Positions 5,652 through 42,062 of a DNA stretch of 42,066 bases are shown here, piece by piece (the stretch's first letter is position 1; each line of letters starts with the position of its first letter). The notes beneath the pieces were generated by a model. The model was not told where the DNA came from, searched no databases, and worked only from the letters and a program-made list of their open reading frames with translations. This DNA comes from a virus: the UHGV virus genome UHGV-0115695. One strand, 5' to 3'. A program made the position numbers and the translations under genes.

Positions 5652-6947
5652 TCACGCGGTCTGGTTAGGCAGACCAACACCAATTGCCTCTGGTCGTACA
5701 GCACATGCTGAATACCACACAGCAATACGGCACTTACCAGACAGAGTGTTGATATCACCCTGCGTTGCGAAGATGCCGTTAACACCAATACCAGGAATGC
5801 TGAAGGAAGACGTTTTCATGCCAGCAAACAGTTCATGGGTTACCGGGATCGGCTGAGACAGTAGACGGATTGAGTCATCAGCCCAGAACACGTTAGCGGT
5901 GGTTGTTGCCACGTTCAGAACGTTTACCGGAGTGGTATCAGCAAGAGAGGTGTTTACATTCGCGTAAGCCTTCTCTTCTTTTGTCAGTGACGCGTCATCA
6001 AGTGCAATCGGCTTCGGCGTGATTTCGATGTGAGTACTATCGATCACACGGGTGATTGAGAAAGTTGCATCATCAGTCAGCACGTTCTTCGCCATCTGAG
6101 ACAGGAATTTCACACCAGTGAAGCTTATTTTGTCGCCGCGCTTAAATCCGGTGGTGGAGGATACGGTCACCGTTGCAACACGGTTGTCGACGTTCTCTTT
6201 GTTACCATCGGTATCAAGGGTGTATGCCTGCGGCTTAAACTTCTGCGCACCAGAAACAGTTACACCAGTAGCGGTTGACTTGGTAACTGCCGGAAGTTTC
6301 GGTGAGCGAAGAATTTCATCAAAGCCAGCAATCTGACGCTGAATAGTACCGTTGCGATACGCTTCTTCAGGAACGCGCCCGAAGATGTCACCATCTACCA
6401 GGTTGCGGCCTGCTTTGCGGTAATCGTCGGGGTTCAGGAAGTAACTGATGCCCATATCGCGGTTTAGCTCACGGGAGAACATCAGGCGCTCTGCATCAGA
6501 CACAAAATCCCAGCCAGACAGGCCAGTAGATGGACCAATTGCGCGGGTATCGTGAACAACAAGCGAGCCCATTTCAGTTGCCTGTTTGGCAATCGCTGAC
6601 TCAATGTTATTCGCCAGTTTTTTGGCGGATGCCTGGATGCGGCGACGGTAAGAACGCTCATCACGCAGGTCATCTGCACGAAGCTCGAAGAAATCGTTAT
6701 CCGGATCGCCCATGTTGCATTTCACGGAGAGTTCCAGAATCCCGGTTGCGTTGCCAGTTAAATCCCAGCCAGTCTGGGTTGGCGCTTCCTGCTCAACAGG
6801 CATCCACACGGTGTTGCTTGAACGCTGCATGGATTGTGCCGGAGGGGTGTATTTTGTCACTTTGGACGCCATTGGCGTCAGATTCTGGACGGTTTCGATG
6901 ATTTCATCGATAGCGTAAGTAACTAACTGCCCTTCTTTGAGAGTCAT
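5652..6947 (-). CDS. 5: Major capsid (coat) protein, P22 gp5 homologue
   Basis: 431 aa; strong similarity along the whole length to recalled P22 coat protein (e.g. ...[15 protein letters not shown]-terminus). Confidence 0.95.
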
Positions 6948-29224: not shown

Positions 29225-29519
29225 TGTATATCTTATTGATAAACGTCGACGTGGGCAACAAATACCACCTGTAGGAATTCCGAATCACACATGGTTTTGC
29301 GTACTTGATATCGATGGTATGGATGCGTTGGTTGACACTCGTCATTACTGCGATACCGCAACAGCTACTCCGGCGAAAGCAAAGAAAATGGCTGCTCTGA
29401 TAGAAAACTGGACTCCACCTGATGGTTGGTGCAATGGGAATGATCGAGATTGGCATGAAAAAATGAAGGGCTATATCTGCGATTTCTTACGTAAATGCAA
29501 CGGATTCAGGGTGATGTGA
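29221..29519 (+). CDS. Hypothetical Cys-containing protein (GTG start after AGGAGG)
   Basis: 99 aa from [12 protein letters not shown]...; strong RBS; no family recognised. Confidence 0.45.
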
Positions 29520-29520
29520 C

Positions 29521-30207
29521 ATGAACAAGATTGACTATCAGGCACTGCGTGAAGCGGCAGAGAAAGCCGGTGAAGATAAGTGGCAGGCTAAAAAAATAAA
29601 TGGTGATTTTTTCGTTATTCGTCACGGTAGTTATACAAGACAGCATGGCTACACATCGTATCAACCCATTGCGGAGATTGATTGTAAGCCAGTCCGGGAT
29701 TTTGTTTCCAAGGCTAATCCGGCTACCGTGCTGGAATTACTGGATGAACTGGAAGCAGCAAAAAAGCGCATTGCAGAACTGGAAGCCGAACCCGTAAGCC
29801 AAACTTACAACTTGCCAGAATTAATCGAAGGGATGGAAGTTTCCATTGATGTAAGCACTTGTGATGCTGATTTAGGTAATCGCTATTTCGGTACCGTCAC
29901 CGAGGCGTTAGAACTTGATACTGCCAAGAATGGTTACATCCTCCTGGTTCAGGACGCAGAGCCAAACTTCGATGTAAATGGCAACTCTCCGGTAACTCCG
30001 GATGGTTGGATAAGCTGTAGTGAGCGAATGCCGAAAGAAACGGGTGACATTATTGTTGTTTCGGATGGCATTGTAATGTCCGGGATTTCTTATTCTCGTC
30101 GTGACGGGTTCTATATAGCCGCATTGGAGTACGACGACGATGAGCCAATTGGCGGTGTAACCCACTGGATGCCTCTACCAGAACCGCCTCGATTAAAGGA
30201 GCTATAA
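29521..30207 (+). CDS. Ead/Ea22-like protein with C-terminal DUF551-like region
   Basis: 228 aa; N-terminus MNKIDYQALREAAEKA... and coiled coil LELLDELEAAKKRIAELEAE typical of the Ead/Ea22 family of lambdoid accessory proteins. Confidence 0.6.
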   Translation: MNKIDYQALREAAEKAGEDKWQAKKINGDFFVIRHGSYTRQHGYTSYQPIAEIDCKPVRDFVSKANPATVLELLDELEAAKKRIAELEAEPVSQTYNLPELIEGMEVSIDVSTCDADLGNRYFGTVTEALELDTAKNGYILLVQDAEPNFDVNGNSPVTPDGWISCSERMPKETGDIIVVSDGIVMSGISYSRRDGFYIAALEYDDDEPIGGVTHWMPLPEPPRLKEL

Positions 30208-31117: not shown

Positions 31118-31365
31118 AATAGCGGGTAAAATATTTTTCACATCTAAAAAATACCATTCCAATCAATCCCCTGCTGCCTCAAGTAGATGTCTGCAGGGGA
31201 CACCATGAACACTTCTCACTAAGTCCAATTAATTCCATAACTCACTGTTTTAACTGATATCATCTCCTTATACTCGTCCAGCAAAGTACCATTATTTCTA
31301 ATGGAATCTATACATCTTTGCGTATAACATTGTGTATAACTGAGTTCGATCTTTTTTCTATACAC

Positions 31366-32541
31366 ATGCTGCTATCTGACATCCAAATAAAAAGAGCAAA
31401 ACCGAAGGACAAACCCTATACGCTTAACGATGGTATGGGGCTATCACTCCTGATCGACACAGCGGGCAGTAAAGGCTGGCGTTTTCGCTATCGCTTTGCA
31501 GGTAAGCCTAAGATGATTTCCTTTGGCGTATATGGCGATGTGTCGTTGGCACAGGCACGTACCAAACGTGATGAAGCGCGTTCGATGTTAGCCAAAGGGA
31601 TAAACCCAAGTGAAGCCAGAAAAGCAGATAAGATTGCTTTGCAGTTCGCGCATGAGAACAGCTTTGAGTCTGTGGCCAGAGAATGGCACTCATCGAAAAA
31701 AGCCACCTGGTCAGAGGGTTATGCAAAAGAGGTTCTCAATTGTATGGAAAAGGATATTTTTCCTTTTATCGGCCAGCGCCCAATTGAGCAGATTGAACCA
31801 TTAGAACTGCTAACCGTCCTGCAAAAAATAGAGAAAAGAGGTGCGCTAGAGCAAACCAGTAAGATCCGCCGCCGCTGTGGTGAAGTGCTTCGTTATGCTG
31901 TTGCCACTGGTAGAGCAAAGTATAATTTTGCACCCGATTTAGCTATCGCACTCAACAAACCTAAAACCCAACACTTCCCGTTCCTGACTGAAAGCGAGTT
32001 GCCCGAGTTCGTTAATGCTCTGGATAACTATCAGGGCAGTTTAGTTACCAAATACGCCACGCAGCTGTTGATGCTAACAGGCGTGCGAACAATTGAACTA
32101 CGTGCAGCGGAATGGGCTGAGTTTGATTTAGATAATGCCTTATGGGAGATCCCCAAAGAACGGATGAAGAAACGCCGCCCCCATCTGGTTCCGTTATCAA
32201 CTCAGGCGATCAATATCCTGAAAAAGCTGCAAGAAATAACAGGGAATTACAGCCTCGTTTTCCCTGGCCGAAATGACGTCAGGAAACCAATGAGCGAAGC
32301 CAGCATCAACAAAGTGATAAAACTACTGGGTTATCACGGTCGGTTAACGGGTCACGGTTTCAGGCATACCATGAGCACCATCTTGCATGAGCATGGGTTT
32401 GAAAGTGCCTGGATTGAAATGCAGCTTGCGCATGTTGATAAGAACTCTATTCGAGGTACTTACAATCATGCGCAATATATTAAAGATCGACAAGTAATGA
32501 TGGAATGGTACGCTAGCTTATTAAATACGACCTGCTATTAA
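31366..32541 (+). CDS. int: Tyrosine integrase, P4-family (arm-type N-terminal DNA-binding domain)
   Basis: N-terminus IKRAKPKDKPYTLNDGMGLSLLIDTAGSKGWRFRYRFAGKPK typical of P4/CP4-57-type integrases; C-terminal catalytic region with R...HGFRHT...Y; ATG at 31366 preferred over the upstream TTG. Confidence 0.9.
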   Translation: MLLSDIQIKRAKPKDKPYTLNDGMGLSLLIDTAGSKGWRFRYRFAGKPKMISFGVYGDVSLAQARTKRDEARSMLAKGINPSEARKADKIALQFAHENSFESVAREWHSSKKATWSEGYAKEVLNCMEKDIFPFIGQRPIEQIEPLELLTVLQKIEKRGALEQTSKIRRRCGEVLRYAVATGRAKYNFAPDLAIALNKPKTQHFPFLTESELPEFVNALDNYQGSLVTKYATQLLMLTGVRTIELRAAEWAEFDLDNALWEIPKERMKKRRPHLVPLSTQAINILKKLQEITGNYSLVFPGRNDVRKPMSEASINKVIKLLGYHGRLTGHGFRHTMSTILHEHGFESAWIEMQLAHVDKNSIRGTYNHAQYIKDRQVMMEWYASLLNTTCY

Positions 32542-33471
32542 ATCCAGCATGAAACAAATATGGTGAGTAATTTGATACTGTTTGTTTTTTGGCAACCCAG
32601 GGAAATGCCTTACAGTTGGTTGACTATTGTAATAATAATAGTTAAGACCAATGTTGCTGCCAAACTGGGTTGGATGTTGGGGAACAAGATTTGTAATTTG
32701 ATCTGAAACATCTAAAAATTTTGCAGTAACATTTGAACTTCCTCGTTGCGTGTTGCTTGATACAAAATGACGAATCCAAACTGTATTCGCTTGTAAATTC
32801 TTGAACACCAAATGTGCGGCAACAGCAGAAGGTTGACCACCTCCAAGATCTAGTACCTGGCCAGTAATTGTATAATCGCCAAATCCTAAGTAATTTTGTC
32901 CCACGAATTGATGTGCGTGCGTGAAAAGTTCCGGCCCATTATAATCAGCATTTTTTGCTAACTTTCTAAAGTTATCGCTAATAATAATTAACTTCGACAA
33001 AGGAAGAAGAGCGCACTGATTAGGAAGCATTTTATTATTTAAAACAACATGATAACTAATCAATTGATTTGTCGCCAACAACTGAATATCAGAGTTGGAT
33101 AATGATGGATTATCATATAGAAGTGCAACTCGTCTATTTAAGTTAGCATTCAACCAATTATTAATATCATTAATCGTTGTATTGGGCTGAATAAGATATC
33201 CAGAGATGATATTGTTTTTATTTGTTAATACACTTGATAAATTTTGATTTAAAGTTAAGACGTTATTGTGTGAAGAAAAATCTTCCTGATAAGGATTAAG
33301 GATAACAATTATGTCAGAATTCCAAACATTTAAACATGTTAATAAATTTCTCGTATTGACGTTAATTGGTTCTAAAATTGGTAGCAGACCATTTAGGCTA
33401 ACTCCCTTCGCAACGAGGTCCCTAAGGCATAATAACTCTGTACTTCTCGCATACAAATATGGGCTATACAT
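32521..33471 (-). CDS. Unknown protein B of low-GC two-gene cassette (316 aa)
   Basis: Long uninterrupted ORF, AT-rich codon usage distinct from flanks, 22 nt downstream of protein A; only weak motif VLDLGGGQ; no family recognised. Confidence 0.75.
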   Translation of the reverse strand: MYSPYLYARSTELLCLRDLVAKGVSLNGLLPILEPINVNTRNLLTCLNVWNSDIIVILNPYQEDFSSHNNVLTLNQNLSSVLTNKNNIISGYLIQPNTTINDINNWLNANLNRRVALLYDNPSLSNSDIQLLATNQLISYHVVLNNKMLPNQCALLPLSKLIIISDNFRKLAKNADYNGPELFTHAHQFVGQNYLGFGDYTITGQVLDLGGGQPSAVAAHLVFKNLQANTVWIRHFVSSNTQRGSSNVTAKFLDVSDQITNLVPQHPTQFGSNIGLNYYYYNSQPTVRHFPGLPKNKQYQITHHICFMLDLIAGRI

Positions 33472-33492
33472 AACTTACAACTCCTGAGGATA

Positions 33493-34374
33493 TCAACAAA
33501 TTTTAATTTTTACATCCATCAAATTCATGATGAATTCTTTTTGCTTTCTTGATAATGGTGTTGCATAACCTAAAACACGTAAACATGCTGGAAGAGAATA
33601 AATATAATCCAAAAAAACTTTGTCGTTACATCTTTTTTTCATAGCAGAGATAAAGTATTTATTTGCTATGTTTAATGGCATCTGCATGAATATCTCTTTA
33701 CAATATTCATAAACCAATCCATTAGGCATATTTATTTTAGTTGAAGTGTAATCTTCTATTATAGCTAAGAACTCTTCCTTTCTAAGAACTGAAAACAAGC
33801 TGTCACTTTTAATATAATCAATATTTGAATCTGCCTCCTTAATGACACTCAATTGATCTTTTTTATTCAAAACCATAACTCCCACTCTGGGGAGATTTAA
33901 AGCACAATATTTACTTGCATACTCTGGATGTGTAACTATATACACTTTATCAAAAACATCCAAATAATCAGGGGCTTGAGTAATCAACCTTTTTGGTGAA
34001 TCATACTCTGTCTTAATCTCGTAAGCTGTAGACGTACCATTAAACACCGCAACATCCACTATAGAGTTTTTAATTGGTAACTCTATGGACGACGAACTTG
34101 TTTTTGGGCTGTGCTTACCGAATATTATTTTATTGACAAGTGCTGTCTTATAAACATATTCATTTCTATAATTCAGACGCAAAAAATCATATAATGATGT
34201 AAATAAATCCCTTAGTGAAATCTCATGTTCATTATTATCATTGTTTGAAAACAGTGTTTCATAGCAGTAAGAATCAAAACTCCCAAATAAATCCGAAATA
34301 TCCTTACCTTTTGCTAAGGATGAAAAAATGGGGCGACGGAAAAATTTAGCATATTCCTTTTTATTATGACTCAT
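33493..34374 (-). CDS. Unknown protein A of low-GC two-gene cassette (293 aa), possible PD-(D/E)xK-like nuclease
   Basis: Long ORF, AT-rich; segment SIVDVAVFNGTSTAYEIKTE has the D...ExK spacing of restriction-endonuclease-fold catalytic cores (inference only). Confidence 0.75.
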   Translation of the reverse strand: MSHNKKEYAKFFRRPIFSSLAKGKDISDLFGSFDSYCYETLFSNNDNNEHEISLRDLFTSLYDFLRLNYRNEYVYKTALVNKIIFGKHSPKTSSSSIELPIKNSIVDVAVFNGTSTAYEIKTEYDSPKRLITQAPDYLDVFDKVYIVTHPEYASKYCALNLPRVGVMVLNKKDQLSVIKEADSNIDYIKSDSLFSVLRKEEFLAIIEDYTSTKINMPNGLVYEYCKEIFMQMPLNIANKYFISAMKKRCNDKVFLDYIYSLPACLRVLGYATPLSRKQKEFIMNLMDVKIKIC

Positions 34375-35054
34375 TACTCATACTCTATAAACATCATGCA
34401 ATTTGATAAGTTATGACGAATTCTCACCATCCAGTTACTACCTGTACATACTAATCAAAAAAAACGAGTACGCAAGATACGAAAGTACTTTTCTTGTTCA
34501 CCAGTTAGCTTACCTTGATCCTCACCAGCGACTGGAAGATAGGTAGCAGTATATGTGGAAACCTTCCCCTAGCTAGGTCTACAAACGTAGTTTGGGCATT
34601 TAGGCTCCACGATTCACGGTTTGACACGGCCTGATATCTGCACATTCGTTTTGATATGCAGCAATCGTGAAAAAGGGAAAATATACGCTCGACAGACCAA
34701 AACGGCACTACACCGCACCCGCCTGCGGTTTTCATATCACTAAAAATTTTCAGCCTGGATTTTTTACAAACGATACCGCCAGTCCGTGCCAGTCCTCGAG
34801 ATGTACTGCGATACAGGAACTGAAAAGAATGAAAAGAAATTCATTTTTTTTCAGTTTTACTGTCCGTCGAATCTATGGCCTGAATACGCAACTCTATGAT
34901 ATTAAATGGATAATTAATTTTAGGTGTGTGATTTTATGAAGGTTTGTGAAACATGAAGAAGATAACCAGTTGAAAAATAATAATTTTATGACCGTATAAA
35001 CTGAAATCCTGTGTTCAGGTTCCGGGAACAGATCGGCCATTCCCGACGCATACT

Positions 35055-35327
35055 TTACCCATTCTTTTGCGCAGCCAGCAGCAACTTTAAAGCCTTTTCC
35101 CGTTCCTCGGGTGGAATTGCATCAATCAGCTCTTTAACCCTTCCCTGCCCGTTCAGCGCGCTTGGACTAACGGAATGGGAGAAAGCAACATTCATCACAA
35201 ACGAGTGACCGCACTCCACATTAGAGCAATAGCAGTACACATCGTACAGTTGTGGGTGTTTCCTGTTTGTTTTACCTATCCGTGCTACTGCCTGACATGT
35301 GGGGCAGTACATTCTCATCATCTTCAT
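35055..35327 (-). CDS. ogr: Ogr/Delta-family zinc-finger late transcription activator
   Basis: 90 aa; CPTCQ...CYCSNVECGHSF zinc-finger arrangement typical of P2 Ogr / P4 Delta. Confidence 0.8.
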   Translation of the reverse strand: MKMMRMYCPTCQAVARIGKTNRKHPQLYDVYCYCSNVECGHSFVMNVAFSHSVSPSALNGQGRVKELIDAIPPEEREKALKLLLAAQKNG

Positions 35328-35392
35328 CGTTCTGTGCCCTATACTGTTGCCCGCCAGAAGAAGGGATTTGGATCCCTACCTCTTGTTCTGAA

Positions 35393-35585
35393 CGTGTAAC
35401 ACTGGTAACACGTGTAACGCTATTGATTTAAAAGGATTTAATCTGTTACCAGTTAGCAAAATCAAGAGGTAACGCGTGGTAACACACCATTTTTTGTTAC
35501 CTCTGTTACCAGTCAGTATTTTTGACTGGTAACACTGAAGAACCGCATCAGTAACGGGTGTTACCTCTGTTACCAGTGTTACCTC
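35393..35585. repeat. Iteron array (about 12 GTTACC/GGTAAC cores in both orientations), putative satellite replication origin
   Basis: Repeated TGTTACC and its complement read directly in the sequence, immediately 3' of the primase gene; resembles P4 TGTTCACC iterons bound by alpha. Confidence 0.7.
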
Positions 35586-35609
35586 ATAAAAATAAGACTC
35601 ACGCGATAA

Positions 35610-38297
35610 TCACTCAGGTTCAGCGCTTCCCAGTACCTGTGTATTGAACTGGTACACACGTTTAAGCCCTATTTCTGGCAGGCGAATGCTGTTTTGCGTC
35701 CGGCCATCTTCACCGGGTTTCAGCCAGCCCGCGTCCACACACAACCTGGCCACCTTACGCGAGTCAAATCCCTTACAGATCTCCTTCCAGCCTGACGGGA
35801 GAACGTAGAACGTCACAACCGGCTCTGTCACGTTGTCTCCTTTATCGACTTTTCTGAATCCCATCATTGAAACAGGCCGGTTCCTGTCGTCATTCCAGTC
35901 AGCAAACCGACTGAACTGATTACGCGTCATGAAGTCCCGAACCTGTTCAAGTGCCGCTTTATCTTCCTGATTAGCTGTATGGCCCCGGTCAGCCATCCAT
36001 GCAGCCAGACAGCTTTGAGCGGCACGAAAGGCCTCTCCCTCCGGCCATCCTGTGATGCCCGCTTTTGTGGCCAGCTCCCCGGCCATCGCAACCAGAGCAA
36101 AACGGGTAACAGCCCGGCCAACCTGATTCCCGGCATTTTCCGGCGTCAGCCTTCGGGTATACTCTTTCAATAAGGCTTTCGCCTGACTGGTCAGTTCCGG
36201 CAGATCAGCGGTCAGGCAATACAGCCAGTCGCGGAATGGTGCACCATGATAATGCGCTACGTGCTGCTCAAGATGCTCAGCCAGGGTTTTCCCGCTACTG
36301 AAGCCATGAAGTTCTTCAAACACGCCATACTTGCCCGAATCGCTTGGGATCTGGATCATTCTGACCTCAACCCCGGCATACGTACGTTCCCCGGCGCTTG
36401 CCGCATGCTCTACCAGTGACAGTTCCCCGGTAGACAGAAACAACAGATTCCAGCGGTTGGTTTCCCTTACCGAACCATCTGTTCTGGCTCTGGCTTTGCC
36501 CTGCCCGTTAGCCAGCATATAAGCGATATTCCCCGCCTCCCTGCCGTCAACCTCCCGGATTTCATCCAGCATCAGCGTGGCATCATTGCGGCGGCTCGCC
36601 GTTCCTTCTAAGGCATTCCCCGTCGCCCGCCACGTATGCCAGAAATCTGTTCCACCACATACTGATGCAGCCACTTTCATCGTCGTGGTTTTACCGTCTG
36701 TGGATTCCCCTTTGAGGTGATAACCTCCACCGCCGATACCAACCAGTTTCAGAAGGGGGGCAGCAAATGCCAGACTCACCGCAAAGGCAAGACGGGCATT
36801 CTTTATGCAATAACGGCCTATATTTTCACGCCAGCCCTCTGATGTGCCGCTGACACGAAAATCACGCCCCTGCACACTCGATGTTTGTAAGATGACTGAC
36901 TGGGCTTCGCGCCCTATCACTTCATCCTGGAGAACGTAAACCCCGCCGTGCCAGCCAGTTTTATTCACACAGGTTACTTTTCTGTCCGGTTTACACAGCG
37001 AGATATATTCCATCAGGAATGCTCTGGCCATGCCATTAATGTTGATGTAAGAAAGCCCGTTAACCAGCAGAACGCGGCGCAGTTCTTCCCCGCTACCGCC
37101 CAGCATCTCCATCGGCATTGCCCATTTACGGCTGTTTCCGTTGGTATCTTCCCATTCCAGCAAACGCCCGTAATTACTTCCATCAGCATCACTGGTGATT
37201 GCCGTCACCCGCAACGGACTGCAAATTTTGATATTACGTATCTCTGTATCACCATCAGACTTATTAACCAGCTTGTCGTACCACAAATATTCTTTTGTCA
37301 GCCGGAACCCTTCTGGTAAACGGGTCTGCCCTTTGCCATGCAGCGTCATTTCTTCACGAAAGGCATCTCTCGCCCGTTCTTTCCCCACTTCCTGCCGATA
37401 ATCATCCCAGTCAGCCTTATGGCGTACCGGAGGGAGCGTTACCCAGCCATCCACCGCTTTGGCGGCTTTCTCTGCCTGAATACGCCCGGTGTTTTCTTTG
37501 CCGTCAGCCAGATCATTATCTCCGGCCAGAATGATCCGAGTTTCCGGCCAGCGTTTTCGGATCTGCTCCGTCACCTTCAGTAAATTGGTGGCAGCGACAG
37601 CCGCCACGATCCATCCTTCAGTCAGCAGACTGACGGTAAGCGCCGTGGCAAAACCCTCAGTGATAATCACCTGTTCAGGTGTTTCAGCGGGTATATCGGT
37701 CAGGGCAATGAATGCGCCAGACAGCTGGCTACCGGGCAGCAGACTTTTATCCCCGTCAGGATTGATAAGCTGGCCACCAGTAATATTCCCGGAAATATCC
37801 GTCAAAGGCAGCAGTAATGAACCGGTGGAAAATGTTATTCCGGCCAGATTCAAAGGCTGTGACAGCAAGGGAAGTGAATACCCGTGTAAGCCCTTATTTG
37901 TCAGATAGACCGGCTCACCATTGCAGGACTGCTGTCTGAGTCTGGTATATCGCTCCGCGCCCGCTTCTTTTCCTGCGGCCTTTTTCCTGGCTGGCAATGC
38001 GGGCTTCTCCTGTATTTCTGGTAATGCAAGCGCCTCAGATACCATCCCGGCGACTTCTTTTATCTTTCTTCCTGTCACCAGACGAACCAGATCAAGACCA
38101 TCGCCATGACCGCACTGATTACAAAACCACGTCCCTCGCCCCGCTTTATCGTCCAGTCGAAAACGATCTTTTCCACCACAGGCAGGGCAAGCCCCATGAT
38201 GTCCTGCGGACGGTACTTTAATACCTAATGCTGACAGGATATAAGGCCAGCGCCCAATTGCAGCTCCGGAAATCGTGGATACAGACGGTGTTTTCAC
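35610..38297 (-). CDS. Primase-helicase, P4 alpha family
   Basis: 895 aa; N-terminal zinc ribbon CPACGGKDRF...CNQCGHG, Toprim-like ITEGFATALTV, C-terminal helicase with Walker A GESTDGKTT. Confidence 0.9.
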   Translation of the reverse strand: MKTPSVSTISGAAIGRWPYILSALGIKVPSAGHHGACPACGGKDRFRLDDKAGRGTWFCNQCGHGDGLDLVRLVTGRKIKEVAGMVSEALALPEIQEKPALPARKKAAGKEAGAERYTRLRQQSCNGEPVYLTNKGLHGYSLPLLSQPLNLAGITFSTGSLLLPLTDISGNITGGQLINPDGDKSLLPGSQLSGAFIALTDIPAETPEQVIITEGFATALTVSLLTEGWIVAAVAATNLLKVTEQIRKRWPETRIILAGDNDLADGKENTGRIQAEKAAKAVDGWVTLPPVRHKADWDDYRQEVGKERARDAFREEMTLHGKGQTRLPEGFRLTKEYLWYDKLVNKSDGDTEIRNIKICSPLRVTAITSDADGSNYGRLLEWEDTNGNSRKWAMPMEMLGGSGEELRRVLLVNGLSYININGMARAFLMEYISLCKPDRKVTCVNKTGWHGGVYVLQDEVIGREAQSVILQTSSVQGRDFRVSGTSEGWRENIGRYCIKNARLAFAVSLAFAAPLLKLVGIGGGGYHLKGESTDGKTTTMKVAASVCGGTDFWHTWRATGNALEGTASRRNDATLMLDEIREVDGREAGNIAYMLANGQGKARARTDGSVRETNRWNLLFLSTGELSLVEHAASAGERTYAGVEVRMIQIPSDSGKYGVFEELHGFSSGKTLAEHLEQHVAHYHGAPFRDWLYCLTADLPELTSQAKALLKEYTRRLTPENAGNQVGRAVTRFALVAMAGELATKAGITGWPEGEAFRAAQSCLAAWMADRGHTANQEDKAALEQVRDFMTRNQFSRFADWNDDRNRPVSMMGFRKVDKGDNVTEPVVTFYVLPSGWKEICKGFDSRKVARLCVDAGWLKPGEDGRTQNSIRLPEIGLKRVYQFNTQVLGSAEPE

Positions 38298-38704
38298 AGC
38301 AGCACCTCCTGACCTTCCGGCTTCACAAATTCAAAACCTTCGGGTAGTTCGCCATCAGGTGCTCCGAAAATAATATCCCGGTAAACCTCACGCATCTCTG
38401 TGACACCAAAAACTGACAGGCGAATATTTTCTGACATAAAGCCTGGTTTAAGCATTTTTTCCAGTTTCTCTGCGGCCAGTATGCAACCAGCATCAGCCCC
38501 AAACTCATTCACCCACGGCATTTCAATATGGTAAATAATATTACTCACCACTTTTTCGTGGGAGAGTTCTATTCGTTCGCCATCTTCAATATAAACAGGT
38601 TCATTATGAACACGCACCATTAAGGAAATGAATGCATCAGCAATGTAGTAGCGTAAGACTGCTGTTCGTAAAGCATGCGCCTTTAAATTTTGATTATTAT
38701 TCAT
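38294..38704 (-). CDS. Hypothetical satellite protein
   Basis: 136 aa; stop overlaps primase start (ATGA); no family recognised. Confidence 0.5.
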   Translation of the reverse strand: MNNNQNLKAHALRTAVLRYYIADAFISLMVRVHNEPVYIEDGERIELSHEKVVSNIIYHIEMPWVNEFGADAGCILAAEKLEKMLKPGFMSENIRLSVFGVTEMREVYRDIIFGAPDGELPEGFEFVKPEGQEVLL

Positions 38705-38933
38705 CGCGCATCACTCCCTTAATTGTGCTGGTTTCCTTAACAACGCCATCCAGTTGTTCGGCAATACAGGCCACTAAAGCCGCAGCGCCTTCCGCTGAAA
38801 CAGTTCTCGCTCCATTCACTGTGGGCACGGACAAGACCTCTGCAAGAAACTCACTGGCCAGTGCCGCCCGTAACAGACGACTCTCCCCCTGTTCACTCAA
38901 TATGCAGCCTTGCTTAAAATTCATGGATTTCAT
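38697..38933 (-). CDS. Hypothetical satellite protein
   Basis: 78 aa; overlapping coupled ORF upstream of the 136-aa gene. Confidence 0.45.
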   Translation of the reverse strand: MKSMNFKQGCILSEQGESRLLRAALASEFLAEVLSVPTVNGARTVSAEGAAALVACIAEQLDGVVKETSTIKGVMRDE

Positions 38934-39133
38934 GCAACCACCTCCCCGGCTCTTTTCACAGGGATACGGGCAGCAAAGCTCAGGATAAATTCAGTGGCAA
39001 GTTTAAGGCGTGCAGCATGCTCGCATTCTGCGATTACACGCACAGGGCGTGGACGGGCATCACGGTCTGTACGGCGGACAGCCAGAAAGACAAAGGTAAA
39101 TTCAGGGTGAGATAAAGCAGGGACTGTAGCCAT
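38930..39133 (-). CDS. Hypothetical small basic protein (internal start of the 196-aa track ORF)
   Basis: 67 aa from MATVPALSHPEF...; GAAGGAGG RBS 8 nt upstream; the long N-terminal extension crosses an apparent promoter region and is rejected. Confidence 0.45.
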   Translation of the reverse strand: MATVPALSHPEFTFVFLAVRRTDRDARPRPVRVIAECEHAARLKLATEFILSFAARIPVKRAGEVVA

Positions 39134-39607
39134 AATGGCAACCTCCTTCAGATAGCGGGTAACGCTACCACCGGAGTTCCTACGCTCATGGGTGGTAGCC
39201 CAGACGGGGGTAGGAATACCGGCTCTGAAGGATACCGGCCAGCCCGAAAGCTGCCCCGCCTGGACTACCATAATTCTGATGATGTGGCGTAAAAAATAAA
39301 AAAATACAATCAGCCACCACACCATAAATTTTAGGTGAGTCAAAGCTGCGACACAAAAAAACACGCCTGGCGCGTGTAGTATCGCCTTCAGATAACACGG
39401 GTTCCTACGCCCGGCTGCCGATTTTGCGGCAACCTTTAAACTATATCCCGCGCATTCCTGGTGAGGCAAGAAATTTATAACCGAAAACTGATCATTGCCT
39501 GGATTAATTAACGCTGGCATGCTTAAGCCTCTGCTTAAAAATAGTTCTTCATTTTTCCTGATGCTGTAAACGAGACCCGCCTCTGAGCGGGTCTTTCTGT
39601 CGCTAAG

Positions 39608-40612
39608 TCAATCCGCAAACGTCAGGGCGCTCTCATCGACAGCCGCGTACAGTTCAGGTTCACCGAGTGCATAACCTTCATTGCGCAGGTAGGAATGCAC
39701 GTATTCACTGCTTTCATCATCAAACTCAGCACGAAACCAGCGTGTTATCGCCTGAGTGTAAATATGCAGATTATCCAGCGTCGTTACTGCCAGACGCTTA
39801 CCCGGCATAAACGGGGGAATAAACGCAAAGCGGCCAGCAACAGAACTTGTAGCCATCTGTGCCGCATTCACATCAGACGGGCGGTCTGCGGCATTAAATA
39901 ACTTCAGGCGTTGATGTGCTGCCAGCTCTGCCCCAACCAGTACAACCAGACGAGGATCTTCACGAAACTGCTCAGCAATAAGCTCTGTAATCAGATGGTT
40001 GGCCAGAGCATCAATATTTTTCCAGGTGCCAGTCTCTCCCAGAGTGACAGGCTCAGAGATGATTTGCTTTCCGTTCCCGTAGGCTTTCGCCAGTGCATGC
40101 CAGCCAATATTGACATCCTCGCCTTTTTTATTGATTTCCGGGTTTGTAGTATTTGCAATCGACACACCATTGAAACCGACCCGCAGCATGTCCAGCGCAT
40201 ATGCCTGGGCAAAAAAGCTCTCAACCGTTTTCTCAAACTCATCCGGCACGCCGGTATGGTAAATATGAGACATATCGGAATAGCTGATCCGGGCGCAGGT
40301 ATCCGTCTCTGTCAGAAAGAACTCCGTACCATTGATTGCCATTTTTTTGTGGAAACGGCCACCATCCACACGTCCGGTATACAGTTCACTGGCACCAATA
40401 TTGACGGCATTACCTGACACGGCGTTAACATCACGTAGGGTAATATTTTTAATAAGCCACCCGGATTCCAGAATTGAGGTACGCAGTATATTTTCAGTAG
40501 GTTCGCTTAATGCAAAGCGTCTGTTTGATTCTTCCTGATAGTTAGTGCCAGTGACGAATTTATTATGATAACGACGTGCTGCGTCCGGCCTTTCAGTTTT
40601 GAAGGCATACAT
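39608..40612 (-). CDS. Putative major capsid protein, P2 gpN-like (recalled similarity; unverified)
   Basis: 334 aa; segments GFNGV...GW, DALANHLITELIAEQFREDPRLVVLVGAELAA and TTLDNLHIY resemble what I recall of P2 gpN. Confidence 0.5.
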   Translation of the reverse strand: MYAFKTERPDAARRYHNKFVTGTNYQEESNRRFALSEPTENILRTSILESGWLIKNITLRDVNAVSGNAVNIGASELYTGRVDGGRFHKKMAINGTEFFLTETDTCARISYSDMSHIYHTGVPDEFEKTVESFFAQAYALDMLRVGFNGVSIANTTNPEINKKGEDVNIGWHALAKAYGNGKQIISEPVTLGETGTWKNIDALANHLITELIAEQFREDPRLVVLVGAELAAHQRLKLFNAADRPSDVNAAQMATSSVAGRFAFIPPFMPGKRLAVTTLDNLHIYTQAITRWFRAEFDDESSEYVHSYLRNEGYALGEPELYAAVDESALTFAD

Positions 40613-40634
40613 AGTTTTTCACCTTTTTAAGTAT

Positions 40635-41495
40635 TTAAGAAAAGATTTTATTTTTGTACTCAGTAACCAGATTGTATTTCATTACATGCTCAACATAATC
40701 CCGGTCACTTACGACTGAACGTAATACATAATTATCTGCTCGATAGTACTCCCTGTAAGCCATAGCTCTTGCCATTCCACCGTTATTTAATACATAACGA
40801 TCAGTTGGAACGCTACAACGACTAATAATTTCACTCACGGAATCAGATAAAGACTTGAGTGCATCAGTAATAAATTTAATATCACGGACAACGTCACTGT
40901 CATTAAATACAGAAATAAAATCAGCAGGGATCTGGCCGGATTGAGGAAATATATTCAGTAAACGCTTATCGATTCCCTTCCCAATGTAGTTTCCTTCATC
41001 GGCCAGTACTCCCGGCAAAAGCTTGATCGTGCTCAATCGACTATGTTGTTCATTCAACCGGGAAACAGCCAGATGGTAATACCGTTCAGCATCCGCTCGT
41101 TCAGCATGCCCCATTTTATTCGTTTTGGCTTCAGCAATGCTACTGACGCCGTTTTTTGAGAATGTGCTTTTCCATGCAACTTCCGCATTTGTCACTTCAC
41201 GCTGCCGGAAAGATAACTCTTCCTCTTCCTGACGACACAACTGGGCATAACGGCTCAGGAGCAGGTTGATCTCATTCGCCACAGTTTCCGTATCAGGTAC
41301 TGTTAACCCCGTAAGTGAATACAGCTTTTCACCTTTAGCTCGCAGCTTATTCAGTGAATATATTTCAATAATACGCACAATACAGGCCGTGTCGCTATGA
41401 GTCTCTTTAAATGATCTTACTTTGTAACTATCTAACACCGACACATGTTCGTTCTTAATTGATGCCAATTTCTTCTTAAAAACATTGTCAACCAT
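40635..41495 (-). CDS. Hypothetical protein, possibly capsid scaffold-like by position and size
   Basis: 286 aa, immediately upstream of the gpN-like gene (P2 gpO is about the same size and precedes N); AT-rich; no motif recognised. Confidence 0.35.
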   Translation of the reverse strand: MVDNVFKKKLASIKNEHVSVLDSYKVRSFKETHSDTACIVRIIEIYSLNKLRAKGEKLYSLTGLTVPDTETVANEINLLLSRYAQLCRQEEEELSFRQREVTNAEVAWKSTFSKNGVSSIAEAKTNKMGHAERADAERYYHLAVSRLNEQHSRLSTIKLLPGVLADEGNYIGKGIDKRLLNIFPQSGQIPADFISVFNDSDVVRDIKFITDALKSLSDSVSEIISRCSVPTDRYVLNNGGMARAMAYREYYRADNYVLRSVVSDRDYVEHVMKYNLVTEYKNKIFS

Positions 41496-41512: not shown

Positions 41513-41755
41513 TTAGGAGTTTAATTTTCTATTGAGAATATTCTTCTCTATCCATTCATTAACTTCATGCTCCACCCATGCAACAGAACGAGAACCGATA
41601 GAAACTTGGTTCGGAAATTCATCATTCTTTATCTTTAGATAAATTGTTGACTTGGGTAAGCCAGTCAAATTAATCACTTCTGATATTCTCAGAAGTCTAT
41701 ATCTTTTTTGGGGTGCGTTTTCCCGAGGCAATAAGCTCATGGCTATGTCCTTCAC
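41513..41755 (-). CDS. AlpA-family transcriptional regulator of the satellite
   Basis: 80 aa; RLLRISEVINLTGLPKSTIYLKIKNDEFPNQVSIGSRSVAWVEHEVNEWI HTH typical of AlpA; first gene of the minus-strand operon. Confidence 0.8.
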   Translation of the reverse strand: MKDIAMSLLPRENAPQKRYRLLRISEVINLTGLPKSTIYLKIKNDEFPNQVSIGSRSVAWVEHEVNEWIEKNILNRKLNS

Positions 41756-42012: not shown

Positions 42013-42062
42013 GGGGCTGGGCTGGGCTGGGCTGGGCTGGGCTGGGCTGGGCTGGGCTGGGG
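42013..42062. repeat. Hexanucleotide microsatellite, about 8 copies of GGGCTG
   Basis: Perfect period-6 array at the window edge. Confidence 0.95.

Follow-up and report, generated by a model that had tools for sequence, protein, structure and literature searches.

A P4-like satellite of Enterobacterales with a diverged P2-family capsid protein and a constant partner protein in the place of Sid and Psu

Introduction

Satellite P4 and its protein Sid are the textbook example of capsid-size piracy. The core gene set of P4-like satellites has been given as int, alpA, alpha, delta, epsilon, sid and psu (PMC8628076), and the searchable surveys of these elements define the family by sid and psu, with no capsid gene mentioned (PMC8628076, PMC10085698, PMC13586616). 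Other satellites carry capsid genes of their own. SaPIbov5 of Staphylococcus, whose helper is phage phi12, encodes Ccm, a capsid-protein homologue that fills the pentamers of T=4 procapsids (PMC8569155), and PmCI172 encodes a capsid homologue and has small heads on contractile tails (PMC6092414). Here we describe an 11.0-kb P4-like satellite at one end of UHGV virus genome UHGV-0115695, a stretch of 42,066 nucleotides (nt) that we refer to as the window. The satellite runs from position 31191 to just beyond the window's end, between two copies of an attachment (att) core, and its subject of interest is a pair of adjacent genes behind alpA. We label their products X (286 amino acids, aa) and MCP' (334 aa). 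An earlier note on this DNA had singled out the same two genes, and both open reading frames (ORFs) are confirmed on the minus strand, with exact coordinates, by the ORF list.

40635..41495, minus strand: X, a conserved 286-aa all-helical protein and constant partner of MCP' (adjacency; AlphaFold predicted local distance difference score, pLDDT, 87)
39608..40612, minus strand: MCP', a satellite copy of the helper major capsid protein, 334 aa, P2/gpN family, HK97 fold (PF05125, E=1.1e-66)

Our preferred reading, to which we give a probability of roughly 0.55, is that X and MCP' constitute a capsid-size redirection module that would act on an ESSI-2-like helper and be analogous to SaPIbov5 Ccm. 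The analysis establishes the identities of the genes, their conservation, the likely helper lineage and the cos site, and the mechanism is inferred from these.

In its overall design the element resembles P4. It is about 11 kb long, or one third of its helper, and has an integrase at a tRNA gene; a long leftward operon begins with a Vis/AlpA-type regulator and closes with a primase/helicase gene with iterons; and there are an Ogr/Delta activator and a helper-derived cos site beside a variable defence hotspot. Checked against the P4-like core set, integrase, AlpA/Vis, Ogr/Delta and a helper-type cos site are present and sid and psu are not, as no ORF of the element matches Sid or Psu. Unlike in P4, X and MCP' stand in the place of sid and psu and separate the Vis/AlpA gene from the remainder of the left operon. 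The C-terminal part of the primase is DUF927, whereas that of P4 alpha is DUF5906, which the sister backbone L048 also has; zinc ribbon and Toprim domains are common to both. Finally, cos and Ogr match those of ESSI-2-like phages rather than those of P2.

The element also shares features with satellites outside the P4 group. Like SaPIbov5, it is a cos-type satellite that encodes a homologue of a helper HK97-fold capsid protein. SaPIbov5, however, belongs to an unrelated lineage and host, and Ccm has no described obligatory partner comparable to X. Like the phage-inducible chromosomal islands (PICIs) of Gram-negative bacteria, among them EcCICFT073 with its gene c1499 and PmCI172, it is an integrative int-alpA-primase element with a helper-type capsid gene, but the capsid genes of those islands are of lambda E or Mu type and the islands lack Ogr/Delta, a P2-type cos site and X. 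As in the capsid-forming PICIs (cfPICIs), the satellite contributes its own shell protein; cfPICIs, however, bring a complete set of genes for head and packaging (capsid, portal, protease, connectors and a terminase subunit), whereas here there are only MCP' and X, with a protease in some relatives. Relative to the gpO/gpN head operon of Peduoviridae (ESSI-2, ESSI2_ev015), X occupies the gpO slot directly upstream of the capsid gene and is of similar length (286 versus 266-284 aa). It has, however, no detectable similarity to gpO and no protease domain, and no portal, terminase or gpL genes flank the pair.

Given that Ccm, PmCI172 and many Gram-negative PICIs include capsid homologues, that P4-like satellites are well catalogued and that RefSeq already names the capsid gene, the element is not a new kind of satellite. 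Literature searches directed at P4-like satellites that have a capsid gene, at ESSI-2 together with satellites and at capsid-forming P4-like elements gave no account of the family, of X or of ESSI-2-like phages acting as helpers.

MCP' is a capsid protein that has diverged from those of phages

MCP' is a genuine capsid protein of the gpN family with the HK97 fold. Pfam Phage_cap_P2 (PF05125) matches it with 225.6 bits against a cut-off of 27, over profile positions 16-325 of 327, and PHROG 70, 'major head protein', matches it at E=2.6e-86. Among PDB sequences, phmmer finds 7oz4 (phiRSA1) at 2.5e-21 and 7jw1 (P2 gpN) at 2.8e-16. An AlphaFold model built on 30 homologues (pLDDT 76.6, predicted template-modelling score 0.79) has as its best Foldseek match among all PDB chains the gpN of the P4 procapsid (7jw1, E=6.5e-23, TM 0.70), followed by many HK97-fold capsid and encapsulin proteins; phiRSA1 (7oz4) matches at E=7e-20. 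The resemblance to gpN that the earlier note had seen in conserved blocks thus holds in profile and in fold, well above what chance would give, and the lack of an HK97-fold or gpN family hit, which the note had named as refuting its view, does not arise. In RefSeq the MCP' gene is already annotated as 'P2 family phage major capsid protein', that of X as 'hypothetical protein'.

Homologues of MCP' number more than 600; the members at 50-99% identity, which span Enterobacterales, have lengths of 328-339 aa. The alignment of MCP' with phage capsid proteins covers the full protein and needs hardly any internal indels; most differences fall in the first ~35 residues and in a shorter C-terminus, and the core motifs are strongly conserved across genera. 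The NCBIfam equivalog model TIGR01551, which has a cut-off of 219.65 bits, separates the two kinds of protein. P2 gpN and the ESSI2 capsid protein score 315.5 and 304.9 bits despite their large mutual divergence, and all six satellite copies tested fall below the cut-off (204.7 bits for MCP' of the window and 186.7-213.8 for five others), with matches that begin only at profile position 20-34. The residue aligned to the gpN processing site, which we take to be F31|T32 in P2, is kept (..RRF|ALSE..) in most satellite copies, as would suit cleavage of MCP' by a gpO-type protease.

In a neighbour-joining (NJ) tree rooted on P2 gpN, 20 satellite-type sequences, five of them with directly verified context, form a single clade (20/20 sequences, 100/100 NJ bootstraps) that is sister to the phage proteins of ESSI-2, YenM324, SI7 and phiO18P. 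P0225 of Brenneria, the nearest phage-type sequence, belongs to a complete prophage and is surrounded by portal, terminase, gpO and gpL genes. The ratio of nonsynonymous to synonymous substitution rates (dN/dS) is 0.09-0.11 for MCP' versus 0.04 for the primase, in unsaturated comparisons. Taken together, the tree and these ratios indicate one old capture that has been kept under selection.

To place the gene in context we combined direct look-ups in Providencia, Yersinia ruckeri, Enterobacter hormaechei and Salmonella with a tblastn census of ~40 loci. Wherever the contig allows, the gene order AlpA-X-MCP'-(GPO_N)-Ash-p78-p136-primase-Ogr-hotspot-int is kept; the exceptions are that AlpA, p136 or Ash went undetected in some loci and that the integrase is upstream of X in one set. 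A test for an ordinary head operon, namely the set of portal, terminase, gpO and gpL genes around the capsid gene, was positive in 0 of the ~40 satellite loci, and portal, terminase and sheath genes are absent from all of them. Within the 11.0-kb element itself, the ORF list and Pfam reveal no portal, terminase, head-completion or tail genes. The earlier note had suggested looking for terminase or portal genes beyond the window; the second att copy lies 125 nt past its end, and the element has none. Because of its context, monophyly, selection and equivalog scores, we regard MCP' as a full-fold homologue but not as an ordinary working phage capsid protein. Of the note's proposal of a capsid-forming P4-like element, the P4-like satellite with an HK97-fold capsid protein stands, but 'capsid-forming' is too strong for an element with no portal, terminase, head-completion or protease gene.

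X accompanies MCP' across satellite backbones

X lies directly upstream of MCP' in every locus in which the position of the capsid gene can be read, and this holds in two satellite backbones. In Yersinia, in Providencia and in a second Salmonella backbone, the protein next to MCP' is an X homologue at 22-28% identity (hhalign probability 98.4-99.5%). The second Salmonella backbone has a different integrase and regulator and a true P4-alpha-type primase, and X is still directly upstream of MCP'. The pair therefore behaves as a cassette. X is under purifying selection (dN/dS 0.18-0.22), and its AlphaFold model consists entirely of helices, which are long.

We found 105 homologues of X, all annotated as 'hypothetical', with full-length members of ~280-290 aa; those named to genus are from Enterobacterales, except for one record labelled Vagococcus. 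An exhaustive profile search of 1.84 billion representatives returned only 53 clusters. A scan of genome contigs with the X profile yielded 8 loci only, owing to a poor search pattern derived from that profile. X has no match in Pfam, NCBIfam, PADLOC or PDB sequences. The earlier note had offered, as an alternative, that the two genes encode size-redirection proteins like Sid and Psu. Homology to Sid or Psu is not supported: hhalign of X against each of the two gives a probability below 1%, and MCP' belongs to the gpN family. The note had also proposed comparing both proteins with known folds, which gave the HK97 fold for MCP' and, for X, nothing beyond generic helical matches. A basic-aromatic motif at the C-terminus of X (K281, F285), which recalls the ends of ESSI-2 scaffolds, was dropped as a candidate feature, as it is not conserved in distant homologues.

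Some relatives carry a third gene. In the Providencia and Yersinia ruckeri elements, MCP' is followed by a gene for a 173-177-aa gpO homologue (L003:11017-11550; L006:11011-11532) that is 50% identical to the ESSI2 scaffold over the N-terminal part. It keeps the protease half, in which D19/H48/S107 (P2 numbering), presumably the catalytic triad of P2 gpO, are invariant; missing is the C-terminal half, which we take to be the scaffolding domain. In these relatives, scaffolding must therefore come from elsewhere. We consider the retention of coat and protease, the loss of the scaffold domain and the constant presence of X to be the strongest circumstantial argument for X as a scaffold or size determinant, and on this genomic pattern X is our candidate for that role. 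The protease homologue is absent from the E. coli and Enterobacter lineage.

ESSI-2-like phages as the likely helpers

Three parts of the element point to the same group of phages. MCP' is 25% identical to P2 gpN, and among 50,697 phage records its closest capsid proteins, at 49-51%, are those of Cronobacter phage ESSI-2, Escherichia ESSI2_ev phages and Yersinia phage YenM324. All of these are Peduoviridae, relatives of P2, with genomes of 28.8-30.9 kb. The Ogr protein of the satellite shares 52% identity with its ESSI2_ev015 counterpart (E=2e-36). The third part is a noncoding region:

34678..34855 (core 34699-34726), minus strand: cos site of ESSI-2-like phages (match to ESSI-2-like records)

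In the same collection this region matches only 9 records, all of them ESSI-2-like. It is colinear with the ESSI-2 record across the junction of that record's end and start, with 28 nt identical. The ESSI-2 record has a copy of GGCGGGTGCGGTGTAG at each end, and the ev015 record breaks off within GGCGGGTGCGGTGTAG. In the RefSeq record of ESSI2_ev040 (L050, NC_049393.1 ~29,480-29,660), the core is broken by a 41-nt Nextera adapter (..TCGTCGGCAGCGTCAGATGTGTATAAGAGACAG), an assembly artefact that marks a physical DNA end. These matches identify the noncoding region shared by satellite and phage as a cos site.

The site is conserved well beyond the window. We tested 18 satellite loci from E. coli, Enterobacter, Yersinia ruckeri, Providencia and the different Salmonella backbone, and 17 of them share an identical 22-nt core, GCAGGCGGGTGCGGTGTAGTGC; in the exception (L039), a 6.9-kb contig, the sequence stops short of the region. 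In the 17 loci, the core lies 0.3-0.6 kb downstream of ogr, although the element proteins are only 25-70% identical. The sharing of the cos site with ESSI-2-like phages implies that the element is built for packaging by an ESSI-2-type terminase. By contrast, the 19-mer of the P2/P4 cos site is absent from the window even when up to 3 mismatches are allowed, which makes P2 itself an unlikely helper; with the low identity to gpN in addition, we rejected it as a candidate. Overall, sequence similarity suggests ESSI-2-like peduoviruses as the likely helpers.

Repeats lie next to the core. In satellites of the DUF927 backbone (window 34730-34860) and in the ESSI2 phage they are of CTGAAA/TTTCAG type, and in the P4-alpha-type Salmonella backbone TTGCAA-type repeats are found instead (L048:17380-17620). 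These may be binding sites for the small terminase subunits of different helper sub-lineages.

Proposed capsid-size redirection and its alternatives

How could two genes redirect capsid size? We envisage that the late phase of the helper, or AlpA, would drive the alpA-X-MCP' unit. MCP' would then enter procapsid shells, either alone or, like Ccm, at particular positions among helper subunits. X would act as a dedicated scaffold or size determinant that binds the satellite-specific N-terminal arm of MCP'. Heads formed in this way would be small, of P4 size (T=4-like), with room for a single 11-kb cos-to-cos genome and not for the ~30-kb genome of the helper. The helper terminase would cut at the satellite cos, and the helper would also supply portal, terminase, head-completion protein, tail and lysis functions and, in the E. 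coli lineage of the window, the gpO protease. The sizes are in keeping with such a scheme. The satellite/helper ratio of 0.36-0.38 (11.0 versus 28.8-30.9 kb) is close to the P4/P2 ratio of 0.35. One satellite copy would suit a T=4-like head, and two would underfill a helper head (~73% of 30 kb) and three would overfill it.

Several observations weigh against capsid-size redirection by way of an ESSI-2-like helper. The putative helper is scarce where the satellite is common: ESSI-2-like prophages occur in 29-48 of 5426 complete E. coli genomes versus 440 (~8%, ST131 included) for the satellite, a comparison of overall counts only, and the window's own strain is not among the 48 helper-positive genomes. 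The satellite is absent from the phage collection, in which all 506 matches to MCP' are below 60% identity. The role proposed for X rests on genomic context: fold searches give generic helices only, and profile comparisons show no similarity to P2 gpO, the ESSI2 scaffold, P4 Sid or P4 Psu. The E. coli lineage of the window has no protease of its own, with only 87 nt between the genes for MCP' and Ash. Nor is there a conserved Ogr-type late promoter upstream of alpA in distant relatives.

The alternative that survives best, unlikely as we judge it, is interference without capsid building. MCP' and X would be dominant-negative poisons of helper head assembly that work outside the satellite particle, to the benefit of the host population or of the satellite, which would be packaged, if at all, in helper heads. 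In line with this, Ccm blocks its helper too (PMC8569155), the satellite carries a defence hotspot and is ~10x commoner than the putative helper prophage, and a score below the equivalog cut-off fits a protein freed from building a working shell. Counter to this, MCP' has its whole fold, core motifs conserved across genera and a dN/dS of ~0.1. A protease with an intact triad, as found in some lineages, would hardly be needed by a pure poison, and the perfectly conserved cos core shows selection for packaging. The poor fit of two or three 11-kb copies to a 30-kb head also argues against transfer in helper heads.

Slightly less probable again is that MCP' is a captured late gene that is dispensable or serves as a backup, as in the lambda-type PICIs of Gram-negative bacteria. 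It may then substitute for or supplement the helper capsid protein and leave head size unchanged. There are precedents: 21 of 29 reference Gram-negative PICIs have a capsid gene, which is stated to be unnecessary for transfer (PMC10111431), and deletion of c1499 in EcCICFT073 left phage interference unrelieved (PMC6092414). A dispensable gene is, however, difficult to reconcile with a single ancient capture held across Enterobacterales together with a dedicated partner gene, with the movement of the cassette between two backbones or with the systematic shift away from phage capsid proteins. Moreover, the elements that host it have no other size-control gene, as sid and psu are missing.

We think it improbable that X is the real size determinant and works on the helper capsid protein as an external, Sid-like cage, with MCP' in a secondary part such as seeding or stabilising assembly. 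At ~286 aa, all-helical and with long helices, X is broadly like Sid, and it occupies the slot of the capsid-remodelling genes in P4-like elements. It has, however, neither sequence nor structural similarity to Sid or Psu, and X is never seen without MCP' where the neighbouring position is readable. Lastly, a functionless, decaying remnant of the head operon of a P2-like prophage, as might be suspected of a gene in a chromosomal island that adjoins another prophage, is effectively refuted by conserved synteny inside a complete satellite and purifying selection on both X and MCP', as well as by ORFs that stay intact and keep their length in hundreds of homologues and flanks with no portal, terminase or gpL remnants.

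Within capsid-size redirection, the part played by the satellite is bounded by its gene content: as portal, terminase, head-completion and protease genes are absent from the element, it can supply at most a shell subunit and its partner. A bolder version, which we hold only tentatively, is that X and MCP' are a minimal, portable two-gene kit, in which the entire small shell would be made from the satellite's own capsid paralogue on a new scaffold, X, and portal, motor, completion proteins and tail would come from ESSI-2-like phages. If true, this would be a third solution in the P2/P4 world, between P4, which remodels the helper's protein, and the cfPICIs, which bring a full head module; X would then be a new scaffold or size-determinant fold.

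The elements seem to form a widespread sister family of P4 across Enterobacterales that appears to solve size piracy with a diverged copy of the helper coat protein and an uncharacterised partner. A probable helper and a cos site can now be named for elements that have so far been annotated gene by gene. Satellite detectors trained on P4 may miss an element without sid, psu and a P4-type alpha. As the element is common and its host tractable, it could bring to light both a new scaffold and a new way of controlling capsid size. It offers a testable E. coli system both for how small changes in an HK97-fold sequence, or a new scaffold, set the triangulation number and for the path by which a satellite may go from capsid stealing to capsid making.

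Other features of the element

The remaining features of the satellite, in window coordinates, are as follows.

31191-31205, no strand: att core CTGCAGGGGACACCA, the 3' end of tRNA-Arg argW (second copy 125 nt past the window end)
31366..32541, plus strand: satellite tyrosine integrase (Pfam)
32521..34374, minus strand: variable cargo, an sce7725/sce7726 pair, in the hotspot between cos and int (NCBIfam NF033832, E=1e-51)
35055..35327, minus strand: Ogr/Delta-type late-gene activator, 90 aa, zinc-finger (PF04606, E=5e-14)
35328..35609, no strand: iteron-rich intergenic region with dense GGTAACA/TGTTACC repeats, between the primase gene and ogr
35610..38297, minus strand: primase/helicase, 895 aa, with zinc ribbon, Toprim and DUF927 (Pfam; phrog_1139, E=2e-185)
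38294..38933, minus strand: two small conserved satellite genes, 78 aa and 136 aa (phrog_38507, E=5.8e-55; phrog_5991, E=8e-38)
38930..39520, minus strand: Ash-family protein, 196 aa (PF10554, E=4.5e-33; RefSeq label Icd-like)
39573..39594, minus strand: GC-rich 8-bp hairpin AGACCCGC-tcagag-GCGGGTCT, directly after the MCP' stop codon and ahead of the Ash gene (read from the sequence)
41513..41755, minus strand: AlpA/Vis-like regulator, first gene of the alpA-X-MCP' unit (PF05930, E=6e-20)

On the minus strand the order is thus AlpA, X, MCP', hairpin, Ash, the two small genes, primase, iterons, Ogr/Delta, the noncoding region and cargo, with the integrase divergent. The gaps from alpA to X and from X to MCP' are 17 and 22 nt, and Shine-Dalgarno sequences precede both X and MCP' (GAGGTGG and AAGGTG). 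The hairpin is a possible weak terminator or attenuator and may separate the alpA-X-MCP' transcript from the replication operon; the terminator scan left it uncalled because its T-tract is weak. The 895-aa primase/helicase is the counterpart of P4 alpha, and the iteron region is the probable replication origin of the satellite, comparable to P4 ori/crr. The Ash gene has the same position in all relatives, although its detection fails in some census loci, and the 78-aa and 136-aa genes keep their synteny.

A TGT-N12-ACA motif was considered as an Ogr-type late promoter and dropped. Its 7 copies in the window, against 10 expected, are not above chance; one copy lies upstream of alpA and is not conserved, and one upstream of ogr lies inside the iterons.

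The sce7725/sce7726 cargo is low in GC (30-36%), and sce7726 matches the PADLOC candidate model PDLC02989. In relatives this hotspot is occupied instead by retron Ec48, Kiwa (KwaAB), DndB, GmrSD or a HATPase gene.

Over the 3.2 kb tested, the window matches E. coli strain E62 at 100% identity. In strain Ecol_244 the satellite sits alone between argW and dsdC, with the integrase adjoining tRNA-Arg. A perfect (GGGCT)n microsatellite of 9.6 units (window 42014-42061) lies inside the satellite near attR, and Ecol_244 has one unit fewer. The element is also mosaic. Relative to its counterpart L026 (window 35610-40612), synonymous divergence (dS) is 0.065 for MCP' but 0.92 for the primase, which implies recent recombination within the element.

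The adjoining prophage

Positions 1-31190 of the window are a P22-like prophage with coat, scaffold, portal, terminase, cI/cro, erf and torI-type excisionase genes. Prophage and satellite are integrated in tandem at the same argW att site, and the core at 31191-31205 is their junction. Ten ~50-kb IMG/VR 'viral genomes' (L016-L025) carry the satellite at one end; in them, such a phage-satellite tandem was apparently taken for one virus. Within the P22-like prophage, an HNH endonuclease gene (window 5901-6416, plus strand) is wedged in between the genes for coat and scaffold, on the opposite strand to them, and may be a homing endonuclease insertion.

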